Source of the DNA: a candidate division WWE3 bacterium
Lineage (GTDB): Bacteria > Patescibacteriota > WWE3 > UBA101185 > UBA10185
Length of the DNA: 64,000 bases
Direction: 5' to 3'
NCBI GenBank assembly: GCA_016182565.1
Contig: JACPGI010000004.1
Coordinates: 110,223-174,222, forward strand
This document shows, in pieces, positions 1 to 55,661 of this stretch; position 1 is the stretch's first letter, and every line of letters begins with the position of its first letter. The position numbers and the translations under genes are program-made. The notes beneath the pieces are model-generated. The model did not search any database. It saw only the letters and a program-made list of their open reading frames with translations, and was not told where the DNA came from.

Positions 1-448
1 CATATATCTTCTTCGGTTCTATAATCGGTAAATACTGGAAGGGTTGCTTTTGCGTTTGGTGCTATTGAGTATTTATCCCCAACTACCAATATTACAGTAG
101 AAAGATTACTAGCCGCGTTTTCTAAACCGGTTTTTGAAATACCGGTTTTTCTGATAAGAGCTTGAAGACTTATAGTATCAACTTGCTTAAGATAAAAAAT
201 TAAATCCTCTATTTTCTTGGCAGGAACACCTGATTTTTTTGACGCTTCATATATAAGATTTATCACAGTTTTATTATACAACCAATCTTGCCCTACGGGG
301 ATTTATCTTTGCTTTTTAGGTCATTTTGTGCTATAAAACAATGGTTAATCGTGTGTCAAGTATTCAGAGTGTACGCCACCAAAAATTGGTTTGTCATGAG
401 AATATTTTACGTATTTATTCACACGGTATTATTAGGAGGTGAATTCTT

Positions 449-811
449 GTGGCAACTAAATTATTTGTAGGTGGAATCGCTTGGGCAACCAGCGAAGATG
501 CTTTATTACAATTGTTTTCAACAGTCGGAACAGTAGTTTCAGCAACTATTTTAACAGATAAATTCTCAGGTAGATCCAAAGGTTTTGGATTTGTCGAGAT
601 GAGCACAGAAGAAGAAGCTACTCGAGCAATCGAGCAGTTAAACGGTGCTATGTTAGATGACAGAAATATCACAGTCAGCGAAGCCAAACCTCAAGCTCCT
701 AGAGAAGACAGAGGTGGTTTTGGAGGTGGTAGAGGCGGAAATGACAGAAGACCTGGAGGAAGAGGTGGTGATAGAGGAGGTTTCGGAGGCAGAAGAGATA
801 ATAGATATTAA
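449..811 (+). CDS. RRM-domain RNA-binding protein with C-terminal Gly/Arg-rich (RGG) tail
   Basis: RNP-2-like 'KLFVGGI' and RNP-1-like 'KGFGFVEM' motifs; C-terminal RGGFGGGRGG repeats; RBS-like 'aggagg' upstream. Confidence 0.85.
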   Translation: MATKLFVGGIAWATSEDALLQLFSTVGTVVSATILTDKFSGRSKGFGFVEMSTEEEATRAIEQLNGAMLDDRNITVSEAKPQAPREDRGGFGGGRGGNDRRPGGRGGDRGGFGGRRDNRY

Positions 812-1016
812 TTTATTAGTATTTGTTAGATCATTATTCTAATGAAATTTAACTAGACTTATGGGCGCCTTTTAGGCGCCCTTAGTCATTTTTGTTAAGG
901 TTTACGTAGGTTTGAACCTTAAGCATATTAGTCTATATTTGCTGTTGCAAAATCCCCCATATTTAGTAACATGAATTACCTAAGTTTTTGTAGTTATTTT
1001 ATAGGCAAATACAGAT

Positions 1017-1532
1017 ATGATAAAAAAATCTCCTTTTCTTTTTGCAACAATATTTGTTTTGATTATTTTTGGAATCGTTTTTCTTGTTAATATAAAAAAC
1101 AATGAAAAAAAGTTAACTAACTCTTCTTCAACGGATGCTAGCTTTAATACCTCACAGAAAGAATTTAAACCTGATCCAACTTTAGATTTAAACACACTGC
1201 CGGTTGTTGATGGTGTAGATGTGGTTGATATAGAAAAAACTGATGATTCAAGCTCAAATGTTAAAGAATTTATAATAGAAGCGGGATCTTTTTACTATAA
1301 ACCAAATAGTATTAAGGTTTCAAAAGGTGATACCGTAAAAATAACATTAAATGCTGTAAGTATGATGCATGACTTAAACATAGAAGGATATGGGGTCAAG
1401 ACTGATATAGTAAAGTCAGGATTTTCTACTAGCGTTACTTTTGTAGCAGAAAAAGCAGGTAATTTTGAAATATACTGTTCTGTAGGCCAGCATAGGGCTA
1501 ATGGTCAAGTGGGTCGCCTAGTAGTAGAATAG
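1017..1532 (+). CDS. membrane-anchored cupredoxin-like (blue-copper fold) domain protein
   Basis: N-terminal TM helix; C-terminal 'GDTVKITL...MMHD...YCSVGQH' resembles type-1 copper / EfeO-like cupredoxin ligand spacing. Confidence 0.5.
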   Translation: MIKKSPFLFATIFVLIIFGIVFLVNIKNNEKKLTNSSSTDASFNTSQKEFKPDPTLDLNTLPVVDGVDVVDIEKTDDSSSNVKEFIIEAGSFYYKPNSIKVSKGDTVKITLNAVSMMHDLNIEGYGVKTDIVKSGFSTSVTFVAEKAGNFEIYCSVGQHRANGQVGRLVVE

Positions 1533-1579
1533 TGTAACTCTTTGTAAATCCGGCCATTTTGCCGTATAATCCTCCGGCT

Positions 1580-3409
1580 ATGAACATCCGAAATATTGCC
1601 ATAATTGCCCACGTTGACCACGGAAAAACCACTATTGTTGATGGTTTACTAAAGCAAAGTAAAACTTTTCGTGAAAATGAGCTTATGATGACCCAAGACC
1701 TTATCATGGATTCAAACGATCAGGAAAGAGAACGTGGAATTACAATACTAGCAAAAAACATTTCCATCTTATACAAAGGAACAAAAATTAACATCATAGA
1801 CACACCAGGACACTCTGATTTTGGTGGTGAGGTTGAAAGAACTCTAAACATGGCTGACGGGGTTTTACTTGTCATAGACGCGCAAGAAGGCCCTATGCCA
1901 CAGACTAAGTTTGTATTGAAAAAAGCATTATCTTTAGATTTAAAAGTTATTGTTGTTATTAACAAAGTTGACAAAAAAGATGCAAAAATCAAAGATACAT
2001 TAAGAAAAATTTATGATCTCTTCTTAGAACTTGCTACCCATGAAAATCAGCTAGAATTTCCTATACTTTATGCAATTGGCCGTGAAGGTAAATCATGGGA
2101 CGATTTTGATCTAAATGATATTGAGGCAGTTTCAGCACAAGATGCCAACTTTAACGATATTTTTGAAGCAATTCTTAAATATGTTCCCGAACCAATTTCT
2201 ATACTCACCGAACCCTTCCAAATGCTTGTTTCAACCCTTGATTGGGATAATTTCAAAGGCAAATACGCAATAGGACGTATCAAGCATGGTCAAATAAAAG
2301 CTGGTGATTCTGTGATACTTTTTAATCACGAAGGTAAGCAAGAAAAGGCCACTGTCGAAAAAGTATTTGTAAATCAAGGCTTAAAAAGGGTTGAAACTGA
2401 AGTTGGCATGTCGGGTGATATCGTATCACTTACAGGTGTTAAAAATGCTGGTATTGGAGATACCCTTGCTGATCCTGCAAAACCAGAAGCATTGCCTACT
2501 ATCAAAATTGAAGAACCCACACTTAGCATTTCAATAGGTCCTAATACTTCCCCATTCATGGGTAAAGAAGGTAAGTTTTTCACCGGAAGACAAATCTTAG
2601 AAAGAATTGAGCGTGAACTTCAAACCAATGTTGCTATGAAATTTAAGATCACAGAAGATGGTCAATATGTTTTGTATGGCCGAGGTGAACTTCACTTATC
2701 CGTATTTTTGGAAACTTTACGAAGAGAGGGTTTTGAACTAAGTGTAGGAAAACCAAAAGTTATTACCAAAAAGATTGATGGCGTTGAGATGGAGCCTGTA
2801 GAAGAGCTAACAATTGATGTTGATAATACTTATCTTGGTGCTATAAAAAGCGAACTTGGCAAAAGAAGAGGTCTTCTTGTTGCTCAGGAAGATTTAACTA
2901 CCCAGTCAACAAGACTTGTTTACAATATAGCAACTCGTGGGGTATTAGGACTTCGCGGAGTACTTTTAACCACCTCAAAAGGAACTGCAGTGATGAGTTC
3001 TATGTTTTTGACTTATGAAAAAATGGGTTCCCCAATGCAAAAACTAAGAAAAGGTGTGTTAGTTGCTACAGAAACAGGAAAAACTGCACCATATGGTCTT
3101 GTACCAGCTCAGGAAAAAGGTCCTGTATTTGTACCACCTCAGCAACAGGTATATGAGGGTCAAATTATAGGGTTAAATGGGCGTGACGAAGATCTTGATA
3201 TAAATGTATGTAAAGAAAAACAGCTAACTAACAATAGATCCGTAGGTGAAGATCCTATCGTGATAGACCCACACGTGGTTTTGAGCCTTGAGCAGTGTTT
3301 AGGGTTTTTGGAAGATGATGAGTTGCTTGAAATAACACCGGTTAGCTTAAGACTTAGAAAAAAGATTTTGAATAAGACCGAGAGACAAAGGGCTGGAAGA
3401 AGAAGCTAA
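1580..3409 (+). CDS. typA: translational GTPase TypA/BipA
   Basis: 'NIAIIAHVDHGKTT' G1, 'DTPGH' G3, 'NKVD' G4 motifs; length ~610 aa; track ORF starts 1559 but the conserved N-terminus begins at ATG 1580. Confidence 0.9.
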   Translation: MNIRNIAIIAHVDHGKTTIVDGLLKQSKTFRENELMMTQDLIMDSNDQERERGITILAKNISILYKGTKINIIDTPGHSDFGGEVERTLNMADGVLLVIDAQEGPMPQTKFVLKKALSLDLKVIVVINKVDKKDAKIKDTLRKIYDLFLELATHENQLEFPILYAIGREGKSWDDFDLNDIEAVSAQDANFNDIFEAILKYVPEPISILTEPFQMLVSTLDWDNFKGKYAIGRIKHGQIKAGDSVILFNHEGKQEKATVEKVFVNQGLKRVETEVGMSGDIVSLTGVKNAGIGDTLADPAKPEALPTIKIEEPTLSISIGPNTSPFMGKEGKFFTGRQILERIERELQTNVAMKFKITEDGQYVLYGRGELHLSVFLETLRREGFELSVGKPKVITKKIDGVEMEPVEELTIDVDNTYLGAIKSELGKRRGLLVAQEDLTTQSTRLVYNIATRGVLGLRGVLLTTSKGTAVMSSMFLTYEKMGSPMQKLRKGVLVATETGKTAPYGLVPAQEKGPVFVPPQQQVYEGQIIGLNGRDEDLDINVCKEKQLTNNRSVGEDPIVIDPHVVLSLEQCLGFLEDDELLEITPVSLRLRKKILNKTERQRAGRRS

Positions 3410-3431
3410 CCCCGCTTATTAAAACCCATAG

Positions 3432-3459
3432 TTGCTAAAGAATAGCGTTCAGGTATAAT
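3432..3459 (+). promoter_or_regulatory. consensus-like sigma70 promoter (TTGCTA-N16-TATAAT) followed by SD AAGGAGA
   Basis: ttgcta at ~3432-3437, tataat at ~3454-3459, spacer 16 nt; 'taaggagattgag' immediately 5' of ATG 3492. Confidence 0.5.
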
Positions 3460-3491
3460 CCAAAAAATAAGTAACCCATAAGGAGATTGAG

Positions 3492-3830
3492 ATGGCAGAC
3501 AATATATTAAGTAAGGAAAAGATGTTGAGCAACTTTCGTATCGCCGGGGATTTGGTGCTGATTCTAATGGCGTGGACGAAACGCAAACCGAAACGCATTG
3601 TGAAAACTTTGGCCCACGAAACCTGGCACGAGATGGAAGCAATCCGAGATCAGGTATTGAATACTCTGCCTGGCACGATTTCTGCCCATGAAATTGCATA
3701 CCTTCGCAAGAGTAAAGACCAACCCACCCTCATGTTATATTGCATCATGTCGTGGTTCCTTGGTTATTCTTCTCGCCTGGAGACCAGATCGGTGATTGCG
3801 TTGTTCAACGCACTTACCAGATATGACTAA
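3492..3830 (+). CDS. hypothetical protein encoded in a GC-elevated (foreign-looking) cassette
   Basis: 112-aa ORF with visibly higher GC and different codon usage than neighbours; own promoter, strong SD and a downstream intrinsic terminator. Confidence 0.5.
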   Translation: MADNILSKEKMLSNFRIAGDLVLILMAWTKRKPKRIVKTLAHETWHEMEAIRDQVLNTLPGTISAHEIAYLRKSKDQPTLMLYCIMSWFLGYSSRLETRSVIALFNALTRYD

Positions 3831-3857
3831 GCGTTTATAAGATTAAGATAAGAAAAA

Positions 3858-3890
3858 AACACCTTGGTAACTCTTTGCCGAGGTGTTTTT
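3858..3890. terminator. rho-independent terminator between convergent genes
   Basis: perfect 7-bp stem 'aacacct'...'aggtgtt' with 16-nt loop followed by TTTTT; sits between ORF 3492-3830 (+) and the helicase (-). Confidence 0.55.
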
Positions 3891-3926
3891 AACATTAAGC
3901 CCACTTTTATTTAAATTCTGAAAAAT

Positions 3927-5333
3927 TTACTCTTCCATGAAAGTCAATGCTGTACCTTTTTTATCCGCTCTTCCGGTACGACCAATTCTGTGCACATATT
4001 CATCATATGAGGCTGGAAGTTCATAGTTTATGACATGGCTTACATTATTAATGTCAAGTCCACGTGAAGCAACATCTGTTGCAAGTAAAATCTTTATTTC
4101 ATCATTCCTAAATTTTTGTAAGGTTTGATGTCTTTGACCTTGTCTTTTATCACCATGTATTGCATCGGCTTTAAATCCTCTTTTCACAAGTTCATCGGAG
4201 AGTTTTTGGACTCCCCACTTTGTATTTGCAAAGATTAAAACTTTATCAAACCCGTTTGTGATTAAAAGATCGTGAAGTACATCTATCTTTTTAAGACCTC
4301 CTTGAACTCTTACTATTTCTTGTTTGATATTTTCCCCAGTTTCTTGCTTTTTTACACTTATTGTCACAGGGGCTTGGACAAATGCTTGTAATATCTCTTG
4401 AACCTTATTTGAAACAGTAGCTGAGAAAAATAAGGACTGTCTTTCTTTAGGAAGTTGAGCAATAAATCTTTTGATATCTTGCAAAAAGCCAATGTCTACC
4501 ATACGGTCAGTTTCATCTAGTACTACATTATTAAATGTTCCAAGGTCAATATTTCCCCTTTCGACATGGTCGTTTAGTCTTCCTGGTGTACTTATAATAA
4601 AGTTTGGTCTTCTGTTAAGTCCCAATTTTTGAGCATACATGCTTTTACCACCAATTATTAAAGCTGAATAAATACCCATTCCAGCACTTAAATATCTAAA
4701 TTCAGTTTCTATTTGTTCAGCAAGTTCTCTAGTAGGGGCAATTATTAACACTTTTTGAGTTTTATCTTTGAATACTTTATTTACAAGTGGGATCAAAAAG
4801 GCAGCAGTTTTACCTGTACCTGTATTTGCAATACCAATTAAATCTTCCCCAGCAAGAATTGCTGGAATTGCTTTATCTTGGATAGGTGAAGGAGTTTTAA
4901 ACCCTTTTGTTACAATGTTTCTTTTTAGAATGTCTACAATTGGGAAATCTACGAAATTAAATTCGTTTGTGTAAGCTTCTTCGGATGATACTGGTCTTGG
5001 TCTTTTTGAAAATTCGATTGATTTTATAAGATCTGAGATAGACCATGAAAAGCTACGTCTTCCTCTTGGGGATCTTGAATTAGAGCCATATCCACCTCTA
5101 GATCCGTACCCACTTCGTGAACCATAACTGTTACCGCCACTGTAACCTCCACCGGATCTTCTTGGTGCAAAATTTCTAGGTCCTGTTCCACTTCTTGAGC
5201 TCCCACCCCTTGGACTAAAGCCCCCTGATCTTTGGCCTTGTGAGCTAGATCTATTAAAGGAAGTACCACTTGAGCTAGCCCCATTGGAACTAGAATAACT
5301 TCTATTTTGGGTTGTTTTATAAGCGTTCATCAT
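3927..5333 (-). CDS. DEAD-box ATP-dependent RNA helicase with N-terminal Arg/Gly/Ser-rich disordered extension
   Basis: Q-motif 'TPSPIQ', Walker A 'ANTGTGKT', 'PTRELA', motif II variant 'DETD', 'SAT', 'HRIGRTGR'; ~110-aa N-terminal RGG/SR low-complexity region. Confidence 0.9.
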   Translation of the reverse strand: MMNAYKTTQNRSYSSSNGASSSGTSFNRSSSQGQRSGGFSPRGGSSRSGTGPRNFAPRRSGGGYSGGNSYGSRSGYGSRGGYGSNSRSPRGRRSFSWSISDLIKSIEFSKRPRPVSSEEAYTNEFNFVDFPIVDILKRNIVTKGFKTPSPIQDKAIPAILAGEDLIGIANTGTGKTAAFLIPLVNKVFKDKTQKVLIIAPTRELAEQIETEFRYLSAGMGIYSALIIGGKSMYAQKLGLNRRPNFIISTPGRLNDHVERGNIDLGTFNNVVLDETDRMVDIGFLQDIKRFIAQLPKERQSLFFSATVSNKVQEILQAFVQAPVTISVKKQETGENIKQEIVRVQGGLKKIDVLHDLLITNGFDKVLIFANTKWGVQKLSDELVKRGFKADAIHGDKRQGQRHQTLQKFRNDEIKILLATDVASRGLDINNVSHVINYELPASYDEYVHRIGRTGRADKKGTALTFMEE

Positions 5334-5640
5334 AATAATGCCCCTTTTAAGGCATGGAACTGCTTAAATTAACGATCGTGTAGGGAAAAGATACTAAATA
5401 AAACAAAAAGTTCTTGGCTATCTTTATCGATGCTAAACGTACTTAATCAAAGCAGATACATAACTACAAAACTAACTAATCTGCGAGTTAACTGGTGAAG
5501 TTTAGCACCTATCGTAAGGTAACGCAAGGGGAACTATGGGACGTGGTTGCAGGGTTTTGATAAAAGTCCTAGATGTCAAAACGCGGTAGGGCTCCAGGAA
5601 ATATTCCGAGAATCCTACCGCATTCCAATGTTATTTAATC

Positions 5641-5979
5641 TTACCCCTCATAAAGTAGCAAGCCCCCAATACACAATGTTTGTATTGTTATCGAGCTTAA
5701 CCAGATTGGTGAGAGCCAGATTGAGGTGAACCACATCATTGCGTATATTGTAGCCGGCAGGGCTGCATCTAACGCGACCTGGATTGTAAGACTGACGAGT
5801 TCTGCCATATGATTTGGCAGCTCTCCCTGTAGTGCAGGGTGCATTCTCGCTGTTTCATTAAACACAAAGAGAATGTTCGTAATTCCCCATAGCACTATTG
5901 CTACTTCTACTACTGCACAGAGAATTACTATGCTGTGCAAAACTCCTTGAAAACGTTTTTTCATTTTTCTTCTCCTCAT
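5641..5979 (-). CDS. small integral membrane protein (hypothetical)
   Basis: 112-aa ORF with three hydrophobic helices and a basic N-terminus. Confidence 0.4.
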   Translation of the reverse strand: MRRRKMKKRFQGVLHSIVILCAVVEVAIVLWGITNILFVFNETARMHPALQGELPNHMAELVSLTIQVALDAALPATIYAMMWFTSIWLSPIWLSSITIQTLCIGGLLLYEG

Positions 5980-6020
5980 TTTTCGATATTATACACCCTA
6001 TAGTATAAATTGGGAATAAT

Positions 6021-6632
6021 TTGATTATCCTTCAAAATAGCCAAAATTTAGGTTACTGTATGCTTATGCAAGAAAAACACAGGTGCACCTGGTCCCTTGG
6101 CGACGAATCAATGATTAAATACCACGATGAAGAATGGGGTGTTCCCCTATTTGATGATGCTAAGCTATTTGAATTTATGGTTTTAGATACTTTCCAAGCT
6201 GGTCTAAGTTGGAAAACAATATTACACAAAAGAGAAAATTTCAGACAGGCTTTTGATAACTTTGACTTTAGTAAGATTAAAGATTATGACGAAAATAAAT
6301 ATTTAGAGCTTTTAAATAACCCTGGAATTATTCGAAACAGGGCAAAGATAAAAGGCACAATTATCAACGCTAAGTTGTTTCTAGAAGTACAAAAAGATTA
6401 TGGGAGTTTTGCTAAGTTTATTTGGAAATTTGTAGATGGACACCCAATTGTGTCAAATATAAAAATAGCGCAAGATATACGGGCAACTTCACCGGAGTCA
6501 GACTCAATGAGCAAAGAACTCAAGAGTTTGGGTTTCAAGTTTGTAGGTTCAACTATTTGTTATGCTTTTATGCAAGCGGCTGGAATGATAAATGATCACG
6601 AAGTAAGGTGTTTTAGATTTAAAGACTTATAG
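6021..6632 (+). CDS. tag: DNA-3-methyladenine glycosylase I
   Basis: 'RCTW...DESMIKYHDEEWGVP' matches the Tag N-terminal zinc/HhH family signature; likely true start at ATG ~6060. Confidence 0.85.
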   Translation: MIILQNSQNLGYCMLMQEKHRCTWSLGDESMIKYHDEEWGVPLFDDAKLFEFMVLDTFQAGLSWKTILHKRENFRQAFDNFDFSKIKDYDENKYLELLNNPGIIRNRAKIKGTIINAKLFLEVQKDYGSFAKFIWKFVDGHPIVSNIKIAQDIRATSPESDSMSKELKSLGFKFVGSTICYAFMQAAGMINDHEVRCFRFKDL

Positions 6633-6935: not shown

Positions 6936-7012
6936 GGCAATCTCCTATATTTAGTGAAATTGTACACCTATAGTAAAGTAATTGGAAATCCTATATTTTC
7001 TATATTTAGAAG

Positions 7013-40043: not shown

Positions 40044-40223
40044 ATGAGGGATTTAATCAAACCCACAACTGAAGATATTGAGCAAATAAAAACCTTTTTT
40101 AAAGAAAGATATGGGGTTTTATTAACTGATGAAGAAGCAAAAGAAGCGTTTATCTCACTTTATTACTTAGGAAAAGCGCTATACAGATATAACAACTTAT
40201 CAGAGAGGATTTTAAATGGTTGA
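40044..40223 (+). CDS. conserved small module protein (59 aa; paralog of 46300-46482); not in supplied ORF track
   Basis: hand translation 'MRDLIKPTTEDIEQIKTFFKERYGVLLTDEEAKEAFISLYYLGKALYRY...' aligns with 'IPTKEELQHLKCFLEAKFGVAFTNSEVLESYYSLTHLGKAIYLF'. Confidence 0.6.
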   Translation: MRDLIKPTTEDIEQIKTFFKERYGVLLTDEEAKEAFISLYYLGKALYRYNNLSERILNG

Positions 40224-41316
40224 AATCCCCTCTTTTTTTGACTTATCTACTCCAATTGACCCCACCGACGAGTTGCGGAAGCAACCGTCGGATACTCCCA
40301 AGGAAGTATTTAATCCAGAAGTAAAAAGTACAATTGAGTATAAGGGTTTTGCTAGAGATACTGAAATAGTCGGAAATCCTGCTTTATTATATTTAACTAA
40401 TTATAGAACATTTCAACAGAAGCTTGATAGCAACCTAAAACAATATATTAAGGAAACAAAATTAGAAATGAGGGGTAAATTATTTGAGTTAAGAAACGCA
40501 CCTCCTCACTTTTGTGGTTTATATAAATCTGCGAAACTCAGTGTTTCTGGAAATAAACTTTTACAAGTAATATTCTCAAAAATACCTTGTAATTCTTGGT
40601 GTTGTCCAGTTTGTAGTATAAGAAAAGCAATAAGATTAAAATACAGGTTAAGAGAGATTATTTTACTAAATGATTTAGAGTATTTTATTACCTTTACTCT
40701 AAATCCCTCTAAAATTCCAAGTGTGTATAAGAATGATACGCACAAGTATATTACAAAACTTTTCAACCATTTTTTAACTGTACTACGAAGAAAAAAGTAT
40801 AAATATTTTCATGAAAATAGTGGTAGGTATTTTTACTTTGATTTAACCAAAGCAAAAGATAAGCTTAAATATGTTTGGGTTATTGAGTTTCAAAAGAAAA
40901 CGCATAACGCACATATGCATATTCTAACCAACCAATATTTACCAGCAGTTATATTACGCAAAATATGGCAAGATGTTGGTGGTGGTACTCAAATGCGTTT
41001 GGAAAAGGTCAAATCTAAAAAAGGTATAAGTAACTACATAACTGACTATTTGGTTAAGGGTATAAAAGATACACCTACAAACTTGAAATTGGGTTATGGT
41101 TTCAAGTATTTTGAGCGTAGATATAGTGTTAGTAACTCATGCACTAAACCTGAAAAGAAAATGAAAGAGTTGTTTAAATTACTACCAAACGAGTTAAAAG
41201 AAAAAGAATTAATGAAGCAAAATTTGGGTTGGATTGTAAAAGAGTTATATAATGCGGATAACGATTATTTCAAAGTTGTATTTGATAGTAATTCTCCTGC
41301 ACCACAAAACTTATGA
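40216..41316 (+). CDS. HUH-superfamily rolling-circle replication initiator (Rep), copy 1
   Basis: motif I 'YFITFTL', motif II 'HNAHMHIL' (HUH), motif III 'YITDYLVK' (catalytic Tyr). Confidence 0.75.
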   Translation: MVEIPSFFDLSTPIDPTDELRKQPSDTPKEVFNPEVKSTIEYKGFARDTEIVGNPALLYLTNYRTFQQKLDSNLKQYIKETKLEMRGKLFELRNAPPHFCGLYKSAKLSVSGNKLLQVIFSKIPCNSWCCPVCSIRKAIRLKYRLREIILLNDLEYFITFTLNPSKIPSVYKNDTHKYITKLFNHFLTVLRRKKYKYFHENSGRYFYFDLTKAKDKLKYVWVIEFQKKTHNAHMHILTNQYLPAVILRKIWQDVGGGTQMRLEKVKSKKGISNYITDYLVKGIKDTPTNLKLGYGFKYFERRYSVSNSCTKPEKKMKELFKLLPNELKEKELMKQNLGWIVKELYNADNDYFKVVFDSNSPAPQNL

Positions 41317-42833
41317 ATACTGATTTAAAATATATTATTTATTGTAGAAAATCCTCGGAAGAAGAAAACCGACAAGCACAATCTCTTGATACTCAAAAAA
41401 CTACACTCTTAAAGTATGCACATGATAATAAACTTGATTTTGTTTGTATTTATGAAGAATCTAAAAGTGCTAAAGATGATAATAACCGAATGTTTTTTGA
41501 TGATATGCTTTCTAAACTTAAATCTGGAGAAGCAAATGCAATATTAGTACAGCATTTGGATAGGTTAAGCAGAAATAGAATTGATACAGGTGAATTAATT
41601 AAGTTATTCCAAGAGGGTAAATTAAAAGAGATTAGAACCCCATATAAAGCTAATAATACGATTTATGATTTGTTTAGTATGGATTACGAGTTTATTAACG
41701 CTATTCATTATTCTGCAAGGTTATCAATTCGAGTTAAAGAAGGTATTGATACAAAATTAAGAAAAGGTGAATTTCCTGGTCCTCCTAAACTTGGTTATAT
41801 AACTGTTAATAAAAAACATACTCCTGACCCAGAAAGAACACCTTTTATCAAAGAAATATTTGATTTATATACTGGTAGCAGAGTTTCTATTGAGATTATT
41901 GCTGATACGCTTTTTGATAAAGGTTTTAGAACTCTAAGCGGTAAAAAAGTATATACCTCTGCAATAGCACGAATACTTCAAGATACCTTTTATACAGGTA
42001 AGTTTTTGTATAAAGGAACTGTTTATCAAGGTATTCATAAACCAATAATATCAGAACAGCAGTTTAAACTTGCTAATGAAATAAGGGTAGGTAAAAGCAA
42101 ACCTCGACCTAAAACTGATTTGGATTTTTTGTATAGAGGTTTTTTAAAATGCAATTATTGTGGTTGTGCTTTAACTCCAACTCTTAAAAAGGGTAAATAT
42201 GTATATTACTTCTGTACCAATGGTAAAAACATGTGTGAACAGCACAAAGATTATCTTGGTGAAGGTGATTTAACCCCTAAAGTAACCAGTATTTTCCAAA
42301 ACTTCATAATTGATAAAGATATGGCGACCAAATCCCTTGAGGTTTACAAGAAACAAACCATACAAGCATACGAAGATAAAGTACAGGTTAAAAAGTCACT
42401 AGAAACCCATGTAGAAGCTTTAAACGATAAGTTAGATAAGCTATTAGATACTTACCTAGAAGAAAAAGTAGATAGCAGTACATACAGCAAGAAACAAACA
42501 AAGATAAAACAGGAAATTAAGCAAATTGAAGATAGAATATCAAAACTTAATAAATCACCAAAAACCACTCTGGAACTTTTGGATAAGTTTAAACAGCAAT
42601 GTTTTTCTCTTGGTGAAGTGTATGAACATGGAGATAAAGAGGTTAAGAAAGATTTGTTAAATTCCGCACTCTGGAACTTTTCTATGCTTAATGGAGAAAT
42701 AGCGTCAGTACAATATAAACTACCTTATAAATACATGAATGAAGCTTCTAAAAGTGGTGATTTTTCAATTTGGCTGGGGAACAGGGATTCGAACCCCAAT
42801 ACCTGGGACCAAAACCCAGAGTCCTACCGTTAG
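41313..42833 (+). CDS. large serine recombinase (resolvase catalytic domain + recombinase domain + zinc ribbon + coiled coil), copy 1
   Basis: 'YIIYCRKSS' catalytic Ser region, 'LDRLSRN', Cys cluster 'CNYCGC...YYFCTNGKNMCEQH'; C-terminus reads through antisense of tRNA-Gln. Confidence 0.85.
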   Translation: MNTDLKYIIYCRKSSEEENRQAQSLDTQKTTLLKYAHDNKLDFVCIYEESKSAKDDNNRMFFDDMLSKLKSGEANAILVQHLDRLSRNRIDTGELIKLFQEGKLKEIRTPYKANNTIYDLFSMDYEFINAIHYSARLSIRVKEGIDTKLRKGEFPGPPKLGYITVNKKHTPDPERTPFIKEIFDLYTGSRVSIEIIADTLFDKGFRTLSGKKVYTSAIARILQDTFYTGKFLYKGTVYQGIHKPIISEQQFKLANEIRVGKSKPRPKTDLDFLYRGFLKCNYCGCALTPTLKKGKYVYYFCTNGKNMCEQHKDYLGEGDLTPKVTSIFQNFIIDKDMATKSLEVYKKQTIQAYEDKVQVKKSLETHVEALNDKLDKLLDTYLEEKVDSSTYSKKQTKIKQEIKQIEDRISKLNKSPKTTLELLDKFKQQCFSLGEVYEHGDKEVKKDLLNSALWNFSMLNGEIASVQYKLPYKYMNEASKSGDFSIWLGNRDSNPNTWDQNPESYR

Positions 42834-42844
42834 ACGATTCCCCA
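42771..42844 (-). tRNA. tRNA-Gln (anticodon UUG), CCA encoded
   Basis: hand-folded cloverleaf: acceptor UGGGGAA/UUCCCCA, anticodon loop UUUUGGU, T-loop UUCGAAU, discriminator G; resembles bacterial tRNA-Gln. Confidence 0.8.
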
Positions 42845-42996
42845 TCAAAATAGTCAAAAAATGAAATTAACTATCGACAAACTGAATTATAGCAAACCAT
42901 ATGTAAAAGTATAAACCTAAGCTACACGTATTAAACTCAGATCGAGCTGGATAACTGTGGTCTTAAGTTATCCAGTTCAAAGATTATGTGTAGGAA

Positions 42997-43557
42997 TTAG
43001 GGTTGGATTGGAGTTATTTTGAGGCTAGTGCTTTCAACTTCACACTTTGCATCAATCGAAATTGCGACCTTAATCACAATCGGCCAACGCTCCCACATTA
43101 AAGTGGTCTCAAAGTATTGTTGACCATCAGGAAACGTTTTCAGCACAGGCCACCGGGTAACCTCAATAGTATCTTGAGACTTGTACCCGTCTCCTACATG
43201 GTACAAACTTACCCATGCTTTAGGTGCACTTTTACCGCACCATTCGTTGGCATCCTGGTAGTTTCCACCGATATACCACCCCAGAGCATTTTTTGTAGCT
43301 GAATATTGCCTGTGAACCCCATCTGTATCAGAGACCTCAACAAATGGAAGTTCAACTGTACCTTCAACTGCACCAATTATTCCGACTGCATAGGGTATTG
43401 TATTCGGAGTTGGGCTATTGAATGCCTCAGCATAATACCTGTATCTGTCCTCAAGTGTTTGCTGGTCCGGCATCGACAACATCGTGGCAATACATCCCGC
43501 CGCTACTAAAATAAGTACCAACACAGTACCAATCCCTTTCAATACATTTTTATTCAT
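42997..43557 (-). CDS. lipoprotein (hypothetical), GC-elevated
   Basis: lipobox-like 'LVAAGC'; ~43% GC vs ~32% background. Confidence 0.55.
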   Translation of the reverse strand: MNKNVLKGIGTVLVLILVAAGCIATMLSMPDQQTLEDRYRYYAEAFNSPTPNTIPYAVGIIGAVEGTVELPFVEVSDTDGVHRQYSATKNALGWYIGGNYQDANEWCGKSAPKAWVSLYHVGDGYKSQDTIEVTRWPVLKTFPDGQQYFETTLMWERWPIVIKVAISIDAKCEVESTSLKITPIQP

Positions 43558-43758
43558 TGTTCCTCTCCCTTGTTACATCATATTTTGATTTCCGGCGAAT
43601 TATATCTTATAGTATGCCAAATTACAATTATTATAGGTCATTAATAAAATTGTTTAATTTCGGGAAAATTTCTAAACAGGATATTTAATTAATAAAAGTT
43701 GGAGTGAGTATTTGGTGGAGCATTTGGGACTATGTTGGAACTAATTCCCTAGTACTCG

Positions 43759-44259
43759 CTACCCATAAAGTTTAATCATTCTATCAATATTTTCACTTAA
43801 GGTATCTAATTCAACCTCTTTTCTTCTAGTATCAACATTGCTAATATCCCATAAGTTAATAGGTTCATATTTTCCCTCACTTGTTTTAGTGAATTGAGTA
43901 CCATAAATCTGTTGTTTTCCTTGTGCTAACAATACTCTATCTTTTAAGTATGCATAGTCACGTTTATTTACGTCCTCCATATTCTTTTCCATTAATTCTA
44001 AATATTTTTCTTGTAAATTTATATCCGGAGAATGTTGGACTAATTTCCAAGATTGGAATGAACTTTTCTTTCCAACCTTACTTATTGTAGGTAAACCAAA
44101 ATCCTTAAGTACCTCTGTAATAAACTTGGTGCTTTTCTCGTCAATTTCCTTCATTTGTTCAAGAAATTTCTCGTCCTTAGAGTTAATGTAATTAGTTCTA
44201 ATCTTAGTATCTTCTTCAAAGAGGGATTGTAATGTTGAAACTAGGTAATTTATTTTCAT
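43759..44259 (-). CDS. hypothetical protein
   Basis: 166-aa charged helical ORF. Confidence 0.45.
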   Translation of the reverse strand: MKINYLVSTLQSLFEEDTKIRTNYINSKDEKFLEQMKEIDEKSTKFITEVLKDFGLPTISKVGKKSSFQSWKLVQHSPDINLQEKYLELMEKNMEDVNKRDYAYLKDRVLLAQGKQQIYGTQFTKTSEGKYEPINLWDISNVDTRRKEVELDTLSENIDRMIKLYG

Positions 44260-44287
44260 ACAATAAAGTGGAACTCTCGCAAAAAAT

Positions 44288-44722
44288 TTACAAACTCAAA
44301 CGAGAACATACTTCAAGAAATTTACTTTTAATATCCTCAAATGCTAAATGTTTAAGCACTTCCTCTTTTGATAACCACTTCAAATCAACAATTTTTGCTT
44401 GTATTTTTGGGGAAGCAGCTAAATTAAAATTTCCAGCGTAGTAATAGGTTATCCCTTTCTTTCCTGCTCTATCAGGTTTTTCATTACCATAGATAAATTC
44501 ATTAGTAATACCCGTATCCGATAGTTTGTAGTCAGTATTACTTAATCCTAATTCCTCAAAAATTTCTCGTTGCAAACCTGCTTCAATAGTACTATCGTTA
44601 TCTTCTATTCTTCCCCCAACAAAAGTCCAAAATGAATTTTTATGTTGTAACAGCAAATATTCCACCCTTTTATCAGGGTTAATTTTATAGATTATTACAA
44701 CTGCACCTTTTATTAAATCCAT
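44288..44722 (-). CDS. Nudix hydrolase
   Basis: Nudix box 'GGRIEDNDSTIEAGLQREIFEELGL'. Confidence 0.75.
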   Translation of the reverse strand: MDLIKGAVVIIYKINPDKRVEYLLLQHKNSFWTFVGGRIEDNDSTIEAGLQREIFEELGLSNTDYKLSDTGITNEFIYGNEKPDRAGKKGITYYYAGNFNLAASPKIQAKIVDLKWLSKEEVLKHLAFEDIKSKFLEVCSRLSL

Positions 44723-44762
44723 GGTGAGATTATAGCACCAACAAGGTTTTTTCGGATATTAC

Positions 44763-45480
44763 GTATCGGTAGTGGTCACCTCCCACCACTTAAATGGAAT
44801 GACGTCCTCCCCGGATAGCACTATGTTTGTCCGGGGTTTCCTTTGCTCCGCTTCTCATGAGAAGTCGTCAGTAACATCGTAACCTAAATCAGAATCATTT
44901 TGCTTACGTATGTATTTGCGTATCTGATCCTCATTGAGCCCTATTGTAGAGACAAAGTACCCCACACTCCACACACCACTATCACCGTACATCTTATCTA
45001 TAAATTTAAACTTAGTTCTAAGGGTGGAACTTGATCTTGATTTCAACTCACGAACTACGTCGGAGATACAATCAGTCGGAGGAAACTCTATTCTCATGTG
45101 TATATGGTCATTGTCTGTATTGAGTTGAAATATGAACCAGGTGGGGTGTGTGCGCAGTGTTTTGTAAAAGCTTTTGACTAGTTCCAAGCGAACATAGGGC
45201 TTTAGTATCTTCCTACCATACTTTGTTCTCCAAACAATGTGATACTGAGTTTGGTATGTGCTATGACTTAGTTGACGAATCCTCATGATGACAGAATAGC
45301 ACTTCGTGCTATTCCCATTCGTCCATGAACTGCGTTCGCAATTCCTCGACCCTTGCTCACTTGTTCATGGTTTGCTGGTATGGATTAGAAAAAGCACACA
45401 CGTAGTGTGTGCTAAAATCCTCCCACTGTGGTGGGAAGTGATTGGATTTCCACCGAAGCATGGGGTACACTCCAACCACT
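44763..45480 (-). mobile_element. IS200/IS605-family insertion sequence (TnpA only, IS200 group), ~0.72 kb; boundaries approximate
   Basis: Y1 HUH transposase gene flanked by GC-rich subterminal palindromes ('agtggtcacctcccaccact', 'cccactgtggtggg'); inserted 3' of a TTAC; GC well above host. Confidence 0.7.
44855..45286 (-). CDS. tnpA: IS200-type Y1 transposase TnpA
   Basis: 'HIVWRTKYGRKIL', HUH 'HIHM', catalytic Tyr region 'GYFVSTIG'. Confidence 0.85.
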   Translation of the reverse strand: MRIRQLSHSTYQTQYHIVWRTKYGRKILKPYVRLELVKSFYKTLRTHPTWFIFQLNTDNDHIHMRIEFPPTDCISDVVRELKSRSSSTLRTKFKFIDKMYGDSGVWSVGYFVSTIGLNEDQIRKYIRKQNDSDLGYDVTDDFS

Positions 45481-46272
45481 ATGGGGATAGATGAAATAAA
45501 AATTCTTAAAAACTTAAATCCTATTGAACTAACACCTGAAAAAGAAATATCAGAACAAACTTGGATTGCACTAGGTAAGGTTCTTAACGATGATAGAACA
45601 TATGTTTTTATTGAAGATTTTAGAAAATCCTATGGTTTACCTAAAAATGGTTTGGATATAACAAAATTTGTTGGTAAAAACTTCAAAGAATTAGGTTTAG
45701 ATAACTATTTAGGAATGGGTTTATCCGTTATTTCCGCTACTCTTTCAGAACGAACAGGATTAGGTAATGCTTTTAACGACCAATTGTTACTACTCCTGTA
45801 TTTTAATGCTTTCTTAGATTGTAACCATTACAATAAATTACCTAGTTTTGAAATTAATTTTGTTGCAGGTAAAGAACAAATATCAAATGCTTGTTGGAAA
45901 TATCCTCATGAAATAGGTGCTATTTTAATACCTGTTTTTGCTAACAAACAAATGGTGCTTGATTGGGTTGGAAAACATTGGGAAGAAACCATTGAAAAAC
46001 AACTGGATAGCAAAATCTACGATAATCCTTTTGCGGAAACTACTCTTCAGTGGAGTAAAATAGCAACCGAAATAATTTACTACAGAGATAAGGAAAAGAA
46101 ACAATTTAAAGAAATATCTACAATACTTTTTGATAAATATGGCAAAGAATATGCTGTTGTTGCTGATGAAGATTGGGCTCGTGCTATATATCACCAATAT
46201 AAAGAACATTTAAAGTTGTGGGAACAATCAAAGCGAAAGCAAAAATCAGCGAAAACTCTTACTCAAAAATAA
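45481..46272 (+). CDS. module-associated hypothetical protein X2 (paralog of 39237-39980); track start 45442 is a TTG inside the IS end
   Basis: homology of N-terminus beginning at ATG 45481 with X1. Confidence 0.6.
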   Translation: MGIDEIKILKNLNPIELTPEKEISEQTWIALGKVLNDDRTYVFIEDFRKSYGLPKNGLDITKFVGKNFKELGLDNYLGMGLSVISATLSERTGLGNAFNDQLLLLLYFNAFLDCNHYNKLPSFEINFVAGKEQISNACWKYPHEIGAILIPVFANKQMVLDWVGKHWEETIEKQLDSKIYDNPFAETTLQWSKIATEIIYYRDKEKKQFKEISTILFDKYGKEYAVVADEDWARAIYHQYKEHLKLWEQSKRKQKSAKTLTQK

Positions 46273-54659: not shown

Positions 54660-55035
54660 TTACTAATAAGGTTACTTAAAATTTAGAAACTAATTTATTC
54701 AAGGGATTTGATTCTATTTTCATGATCATTTAATTTATAGTTTACGATGGTACTTTCTTGCCGCCTATCCTGTACTTCTACTAGAATTTTATCAACATTT
54801 TCGTATAGCTTTGGTATAAGCATGGTTCTTTCATTAAGCTCATTTAACTGTTTTTCTAAAGAATAAAATTTTGAAGTAACAAAAATTTTGAACTCTCTAA
54901 AAGTGGTATCAATGCTTTCAAACCTACTTTTTATGTCGGTTAACGTAATTTTGTCATAGCAAATCTATAACATTATCCTAATACACATTGCAATATGCAA
55001 ATATATGACTAAATTTGTCTTATTAACTAAGTGTC

Positions 55036-55111
55036 TGGTGGGAAGAGTGGGAATCGGACCCACATAGCCGGTTTTTCAGACCGGTGCCTTGACCAACTTG
55101 GCTATCTTCCC
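55036..55111 (-). tRNA. tRNA-Phe (anticodon GAA)
   Basis: acceptor GGGAAGA/UCUUCCC, anticodon loop CUGAAAA, T-arm GUGGGUCCGAUUCCCAC, CCA encoded. Confidence 0.8.
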
Positions 55112-55127
55112 GCTTTGCATAATTAAA

Positions 55128-55203
55128 TGGAGCGACGGACCGGACTCGAACCGGCGACCTCCTCCTTGGCAAGGAGGCGTTCTACCAACTGAACTACCGT
55201 CGC
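55128..55203 (-). tRNA. tRNA-Gly (anticodon GCC)
   Basis: acceptor GCGACGG/CCGUCGC, anticodon loop UUGCCAA, discriminator U, CCA encoded. Confidence 0.85.
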
Positions 55204-55239
55204 ATAAACAAAAACTATTTTAACATGTAAAAAATTATT

Positions 55240-55326
55240 TGGTGGGCGAGACAGGACTTGAACCTGCACAGGTTTTACCCCACAACGACCTCAACGTTGC
55301 GCGTATGCCAATTCCGCCACTCGCCC
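55240..55326 (-). tRNA. tRNA-Leu (anticodon GAG), type II long variable arm
   Basis: UGGCGGAAUUGG D-region typical of Leu, anticodon loop UUGAGGU, 87 nt. Confidence 0.8.
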
Positions 55327-55388
55327 ATGCAAACATGTGATATTTTATCATGTTTTCTTAAATTCAGAATCTATATTTACAATATGGT

Positions 55389-55475
55389 TGGTGCCAGAGA
55401 TGGGATTTGAACCCATACGCCTTTTACAGCACTGCCTTCTGAAGACAGCGAGTCTGCCAATTTCTCCACTCTGGC
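55389..55475 (-). tRNA. tRNA-Leu (anticodon CAG), type II
   Basis: acceptor GCCAGAG/CUCUGGC, anticodon loop UUCAGAA, long variable arm, 87 nt. Confidence 0.8.
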
Positions 55476-55511
55476 ATAAGTTTTTAGTATTAAGCGGCTA
55501 GAAATAAAATT

Positions 55512-55586
55512 TGGTGAGGGCGGTGGGATTCGAACCCACGACACACGGATTAAGAGTCCGATGCTCTACCACTGAGCTACGCCCCC
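55512..55586 (-). tRNA. tRNA-Lys (anticodon CUU)
   Basis: D-arm GCUCAGUGGUAGAGC, anticodon loop CUCUUAA, T-arm GUGGGUUCGAAUCCCAC. Confidence 0.75.
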
Positions 55587-55661
55587 AAGCTTGCTAATTA
55601 TACAATAATCTATTTATCCTCTAAACTTCTAGGTAATATCAGTTATTAAAGGGGTTAAATT

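Follow-up and report, generated by a model that had tools for sequence, protein, structure and literature searches.

A probable horizontally acquired single-gene cassette between the typA and DEAD-box helicase genes of a candidate division WWE3 bacterium

The 517-bp interval (positions 3410 to 3926) which separates the convergent typA and DEAD-box RNA helicase genes of a candidate division WWE3 bacterium, within the 64,000-nucleotide stretch of DNA analyzed here (the window), is likely to represent an autonomous transcription unit of one gene, gained horizontally by the WWE3 chromosome, with a source, a product, and an accessory role as proposed here. Transcription of this unit is believed to start near position 3466 from a predicted sigma-70-type promoter (3432 to 3459), which would produce a leader of approximately 26 nt carrying a canonical AAGGAGA Shine-Dalgarno (SD) sequence, followed by an open reading frame (ORF) of 112 codons (3492 to 3830). 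A hairpin at positions 3855 to 3890 is predicted to end the transcript of this ORF as well as read-through from typA and, on the other strand, the transcript of the convergent helicase gene. The gene is presumed to derive from a more GC-rich reservoir with SD-led genes, probably the Patescibacteria mobilome, and would have been little ameliorated since its arrival. Its predicted product is small, all-alpha, soluble, and mildly basic; it probably binds a partner and is probably a dimer. The gene is most suitably classed as a member of an ORFan family which a CPR genome gained by horizontal transfer.

Little is known of horizontal gene transfer into the tiny genomes of CPR/Patescibacteria episymbionts, whose phages and mobile elements have barely been sampled. 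The locus described here is read as a clean and well-bounded case of recent gene gain, in which SD-led signals appear to have entered a genome of mostly leaderless-type starts, and it defines a very rare protein family (four members against 1.84 billion cluster representatives) for which no relatives of known fold were detectable. It also clears a public metagenome-assembled genome (MAG) of a possible contamination flag and offers a small test case for the expression of foreign genes in CPR bacteria; its practical value is modest, and it holds little to surprise specialists.

Setting and composition of the typA-helicase interval

Both genes which border the interval are host genes. The left flank, typA/bipA (1559 to 3409, plus strand), matches the Pfam families GTP_EFTU (4.9e-55) and BipA_C (8.5e-38), possesses a complete C-terminus with its TAA stop codon at 3407 to 3409, and specifies a product with 81% identity to its counterpart in the WWE3 relative L002. 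The right flank is the DEAD-box RNA helicase gene (3927 to 5333, minus strand; Pfam DEAD, 5.4e-45, and Helicase_C, 2.8e-33), the orthologues of which adjoin typA, convergent and downstream, in the WWE3-type relatives L002, L007, L008, and L013. Upstream of the helicase start lies a non-coding stretch of approximately 260 nt (5334 to 5600, minus strand) with a relatively high GC content of about 0.38 to 0.45, which may constitute a long 5′ untranslated region of the helicase gene; the Rfam scan of the whole window returned no family at gathering score within it. The 112-codon gene on the plus strand, located from the ORF list and by database identity, encodes a product identical to MBI2414566.1 (HYV31_01825), a “hypothetical protein” from a 244-kb contig of a candidate division WWE3 MAG, and an ORF of 97 aa is present on the strand opposite to it. 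The features listed for the interval in an initial annotation, which was made from the sequence alone, were all found at the positions given there, with a different description of the terminator stem.

That annotation had also portrayed the ORF as compositionally foreign, a view which is upheld by a strong departure of its GC content and codon usage from the genome background. The GC content of the ORF is 0.457, compared to 0.336 for the window, which places it at the 99.5th percentile of 339-nt windows, and the values for codon positions 1, 2, and 3 are 0.43, 0.38, and 0.56, respectively. Its third-position GC content (GC3; 0.558) lies at z ≈ +7.7 relative to 53 host ORFs no shorter than 150 aa, whose GC3 is 0.258 ± 0.039 and never exceeds 0.396. 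It ranks last among 64 ORFs in agreement with host codon usage (z = -6.6), and its observed-to-expected CpG ratio is 1.02 versus 0.61. The codon CGC supplies four of its eight arginine codons versus 3% of host arginine codons, 60% of which are AGA. Because the GC excess is found at third (synonymous) positions, amino acid content is not its cause; other GC-rich patches of the window, namely, the Gly/Arg-rich RRM gene and the helicase tail, are instead rich at codon positions 1 and 2, and the RRM gene, with a GC3 of 0.23, presents the reverse pattern to that of the 112-codon ORF. The same codon-fit score also picks out an IS200-like transposase gene (44855 to 45286; Pfam, 3.8e-27), a known mobile gene, which validates the score as a detector of foreign DNA.

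The surroundings of that transposase gene, at 40216 to 45500, resemble an integrated mobile element beside tRNA-Gln (42771 to 42844). This region encodes a Rep-like protein (40216 to 41316; PF23343), a large serine recombinase (41313 to 42833), and a GC-rich 186-aa ORFan (42997 to 43557) followed by DUF6624 and NUDIX proteins, in addition to the IS200-like Y1 transposase itself, and includes a short stretch with a GC content of 0.48 (45306 to 45494).

The content of the typA-helicase junction in relatives was assessed using TypA as an anchor, through which 60 loci were obtained from GTDB species representatives. The stop codons of typA and the helicase gene are located about 20 to 30 nt apart in L007 and L008, versus 517 nt in the window, while a pyruvate kinase gene separates the two in L002, the closest relative, and an antiporter-like gene does so in L013. 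These differing contents mark the junction as a variable slot. The GC3 of the occupants in L002 and L013 does not differ from that of their flanks, and among the junction occupants compared, that of the window alone has a foreign composition. The 112-aa protein has no homologue in any of the 13 WWE3-type loci retrieved, such that none resides at the same locus in relatives. Foreign composition and absence from the junction of relatives together support the earlier proposal that a self-contained cassette was acquired horizontally. The insertion is not marked by a recombinase or by any convincing flanking direct repeats, terminal inverted repeats, or target-site duplication, and neither the ORF nor either of its ends recurs within the window.

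A native, vertically inherited gene, with a composition imposed by selection (for example, on expression or mRNA structure) and with subsequent loss from the relatives, is considered improbable. An intrinsic nucleotide constraint could explain why all four known members of the protein family are GC3-rich irrespective of the GC content of their flanks: the three homologous genes (loci L062, L063, and L064) have a GC content of 0.44 to 0.48 and a GC3 of 0.53 to 0.61, with a neighboring-gene GC3 of 0.28 to 0.43 in L062 and L064 and of 0.42 to 0.58 in L063, which is GC-rich throughout. The host, moreover, employs SD sequences for some of its own genes, as exemplified by the AGGAGG which precedes the RRM gene. 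However, that strong SD suggests a high level of expression of the RRM gene, the GC3 of which is nevertheless 0.23, indicating that high expression does not raise GC3 in this genome. Native descent is further disfavored by the absence of the gene from the 13 WWE3-type loci, by the direct adjacency of typA and the helicase gene in L007 and L008, by the extreme rarity of the family and its occurrence in unrelated contexts, and by the combination of a GC3 shift of 7.7 standard deviations with CpG enrichment, which is typical of foreign DNA.

Predicted expression signals and integrity of the locus

The putative promoter of the acquired gene comprises TTGCTA (3432 to 3437) and TATAAT (3454 to 3459) on the plus strand, separated by a 16-nt spacer and matching 10 of 12 consensus positions, with 32 nt between the end of TATAAT and the ATG. 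Since promoter-like sites are no more common between positions 3000 and 6200 than in shuffled sequences (7 versus 8.9), this match is not significant alone, and support for the predicted promoter is instead derived from the homologous cassettes, in which TATAAT occurs at a like distance from the ATG (32 nt in L062, identical to that found here, and 37 nt in L064). The AAGGAGA SD (3480 to 3486, plus strand), read from the sequence, precedes the ATG by 5 nt; the promoter and SD reported in the initial annotation are thus both present as sequence motifs.

Downstream of the ORF, a bidirectional intrinsic terminator is predicted at 3855 to 3890 (both strands). This structure, which corresponds to inverted repeat I1, consists of a 16-bp hairpin with arms at 3855 to 3870 and 3875 to 3890, a 4-nt loop, two G.U pairs, and flanking runs of A7 and T5. 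With a dG of -21 kcal/mol (z = -5.65), it is a hairpin whose stability was equaled in 0 of 200 shuffles, and since an A-run and a T-run flank the stem, it could stop transcription on both strands. The terminator and its T5 tract had been recognized previously, with a 7-bp perfect stem; the stem is in fact 16 bp in length and imperfect owing to its G.U pairs.

Expression signals of this type are atypical for the host. A 5-mer SD was found near a candidate start in only 6 of the 64 window ORFs that reach 100 aa, whereas a -10-like hexamer ends 4 to 14 nt before the first ATG in 24 of them, with a peak at 6 nt; a box at the same spacing precedes only 6.8% of internal ATGs. The host genome, therefore, appears to rely mainly on leaderless-type or near-leaderless starts, which would set the SD-led cassette apart from most host genes. 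Three of the four ORFs which are outliers in codon usage carry an SD. The signals had been described as enterobacterial in style rather than like those of the host, a statement of which the latter half holds, while nothing specifically enterobacterial was recovered.

Another small gene lies beyond the helicase gene. The ORF at 5641 to 5979 (minus strand), which encodes a membrane-like ORFan of 112 aa (MBI2414568.1) with a GC content of 0.43 and a GC3 of 0.42, is a codon usage outlier and a stand-alone small gene (region 5580 to 6016), with a predicted promoter (TTCCCA-17-TATAAT, 6016 to 5988) and a downstream hairpin, GCGGTAGG...CCTACCGC. It is absent from the loci of the relatives and shows no relationship to the membrane ORF in L063. 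A link between the two 112-aa ORFs was considered and discarded, as they share no sequence similarity. This gene (5979 to 5641) and a further small membrane protein gene (6935 to 6729, minus strand) are preceded by near-identical promoter sequences, TT(C)CCAATT..ACTATAGG(G)TGTA(T/C)AAT, at 5985 to 6016 and 6955 to 6990.

The abrupt change in composition, the textbook E. coli-like signals, and a GC3 within the E. coli range would also be expected if the segment were a contaminant, a chimeric assembly, or an insert of vector or laboratory origin, and a contaminating or engineered insert had indeed been raised as an alternative to horizontal gain. In blastn and tblastn searches, however, no DNA similar to the cassette was detected among 5,426 complete E. 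coli genomes, PLSDB plasmids, and GenBank phages, and its product had no protein match in phages or plasmids, so that neither nucleotide nor protein similarity points to an enterobacterial or plasmid origin; the relatives which were detected are environmental, and one of them sits beside a Patescibacteria-type pheS-pheT pair. A second, independent assembly (Logan, SRR12113420) covers positions 1 to 6566 of the window, inclusive of both junctions, with 99.92% identity and no gaps. The two assemblies differ by five SNPs in 6.6 kb, one of which falls within the cassette (3877 G>A; position 10386 of L001) and converts a G.U pair of the terminator stem to A-U; this strain-level variant preserves the stem and is consistent with maintenance of the hairpin. 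The flanking stop codons are, furthermore, intact, and the terminator is placed such that it would also serve the convergent helicase gene. Given the lack of similarity to E. coli, plasmids, and phages and the existence of a junction-spanning assembly, contamination, vector sequence, and chimerism are rejected as very improbable.

A rare protein family and its loci

An exhaustive scan with HMMER over 1.84 billion cluster representatives recovered three true homologues of the 112-aa protein (E values of 8e-8 to 3e-7), which are colinear with the query and share 28 to 37% identity with it: P0003 (124 aa), P0005 (107 aa), and P0004 (225 aa), the last of which contains two tandem copies of the domain. 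The family thus comprises four members. A further candidate, P0002 (1,062 aa, with 11 matched stretches), was dismissed as spurious, being a tandem-repeat protein which repeatedly matches residues 34 to 63. Word-indexed protein searches returned only the gene itself and two of the homologues already known, and no close copy or donor of the cassette was present in the collections searched, which included two scans of viral contigs and two of metagenome contigs. The 112-aa protein obtained no match in NCBIfam, PHROGs, or PADLOC, its best Pfam match (E = 0.089) was below the cut-off, and the sequence search of the PDB yielded a best E value of 0.25, with no fold match either.

The motifs common to the family are AWT[KR]N[KQ]P, RD..L..LP, SIAYL, MMW..W.L, and VIALF. 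The alignment contains 12 invariant columns, about ten of which are hydrophobic (L, I, M, W, F), while the invariant residues of other types are prolines P33 and P60 and arginine R52; no catalytic constellation was found among the conserved residues of the four-member alignment. AlphaFold2 (AF2) modeling on a five-row alignment predicted a six-helix bundle (pLDDT 76, pTM 0.70) with moderate confidence, two of the five models having a pLDDT of about 76 and the remaining three falling below 46. All members are predicted to be soluble and mildly basic, with a pI of 7.8 to 9.6 (9.6 for the 112-aa protein). From these sequence features it is proposed, with low confidence, that the product is probably a non-enzymatic binding protein; that it probably acts as a dimer is suggested, at the same low level of confidence, by the fusion of two domain copies in P0004. 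Its role is probably accessory rather than housekeeping, with a possible link to genetic conflict.

The homologues are encoded on short metagenomic contigs in unrelated contexts, none of the neighboring genes having counterparts within the window. In L062, the family gene lies beside pheS-pheT, the closest named relatives of which are Patescibacteria; this neighbor, the only one that could be placed taxonomically, assigns the contig to the Patescibacteria. In L064, the gene for P0004 (535 to 1212) is convergent to the C-terminus of a defense-type HerA ATPase (1290 to 1760; PADLOC HerA, 4.7e-79), which suggests a defense island as the context of this one family member. The small, GC-rich contig L063 harbors the family gene directly after an upstream ORF, without a promoter of its own. 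AAGGAGA precedes the ATG, and a hairpin with a T-run terminator follows the stop codon, in all four members; as judged from these motifs, the promoter, SD, ORF, and terminator would appear to form a module which has been conserved in at least three members.

The 8-mer ACTATAGG, found in the promoters of the two small membrane protein genes described above, also occupies a promoter position in each of the three homologue loci (L062, 2964; L064, 474; L063, 616), where about 0.2 matches would be expected in 6.6 kb. The 8-mer is not generally enriched in the window (3 occurrences versus 1.8 expected) or across the fetched loci.

Conservation at the protein level also bears on whether the ORF is translated. 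Its length constitutes weak evidence for a gene when taken alone, as 65 of 2,000 dinucleotide shuffles reached at least 112 codons (P of about 0.03), and a structured non-coding RNA gene, with the ORF as a by-product of fewer stop codons, might be invoked on the basis of this marginal length, the 97-aa ORF on the opposite strand, a folding z-score of -2.0, and the fact that RNA genes often account for GC-rich islands in AT-rich genomes, as is the case for the tRNA cluster at 54971 to 55610. This reading is nonetheless highly implausible and was abandoned: at the gathering score, Rfam yielded only tRNAs in the whole window, which lie elsewhere, the E-value scan of 3350 to 3950 gave sole sub-threshold, terminator-shaped matches on the hairpin and none to the ORF body even at E values up to 10, the folding signal is slight, the homologues retain frame, length, and hydrophobic-core positions at 28 to 37% identity, each of the four members has an appropriately spaced canonical SD, and the GC pattern across codon positions (GC3 > GC1 > GC2) is typical of coding sequence. 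On the strength of its protein-level homologues, which are the decisive evidence, the ORF at 3492 to 3830 is regarded as a real protein-coding gene.

Comparison with known systems

The cassette shares a number of properties with the ORFan or acquired “hypothetical protein” genes which populate genomic islets, including atypical composition and codon usage, patchy spread, the lack of an assignable family, and location in a variable intergenic slot. It differs from them in being a single 0.5-kb unit with a complete set of putative expression signals, the architecture of which is retained in distant members and which resides in a genome of mostly leaderless-type starts.

Integron cassettes are normally promoterless, end in an attC site, and sit by an intI integrase gene. 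The present cassette resembles them as an inserted small module with a single ORF, but a promoter is predicted here, and the only inverted repeat is that of the terminator hairpin; no integrase was detected among the neighboring ORFs checked against Pfam.

The closest parallel is provided by the morons of phages, of the type of HK97 gene 15 (Cumby, Davidson, and Maxwell, 2012, PMC3594210). A moron is defined as extra DNA between genes which are adjacent in relatives, with a differing GC content and its own promoter and terminator (PMC3594210). The cassette is likewise extra DNA between two genes which are adjacent in L007 and L008, differs in composition from its neighbors, and contains a single small gene of probable accessory function. 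As for the promoter and factor-independent terminator of a moron, the corresponding sequence motifs are present, and they keep their positions in two (TATAAT) and all three (terminator) of the homologue loci. The cassette is, however, part of the cellular chromosome of a CPR bacterium, where typA and a DEAD-box helicase gene flank it, rather than of a phage or prophage, and neither phage genes near the cassette nor phage homologues were found in PHROGs or the phage collections. Since the features of a moron are shared in part while phage residence is not, the cassette is described as moron-like rather than as a strict moron.

It is tempting to speculate, although we regard this as rather unlikely, that the family represents a new class of “chromosomal morons.” Such elements would be promoter-SD-ORF-terminator cassettes of approximately 0.5 kb without a recombinase, which would circulate in the Patescibacteria mobilome (for example, in unsampled CPR phages with a GC content of about 45 to 48%) and insert between convergent genes, SD-led expression being kept in otherwise largely leaderless hosts. 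Their proteins would act in conflicts, for instance in superinfection exclusion or anti-defense, in the manner of classical moron products, and ACTATAGG would act as a common regulatory site.
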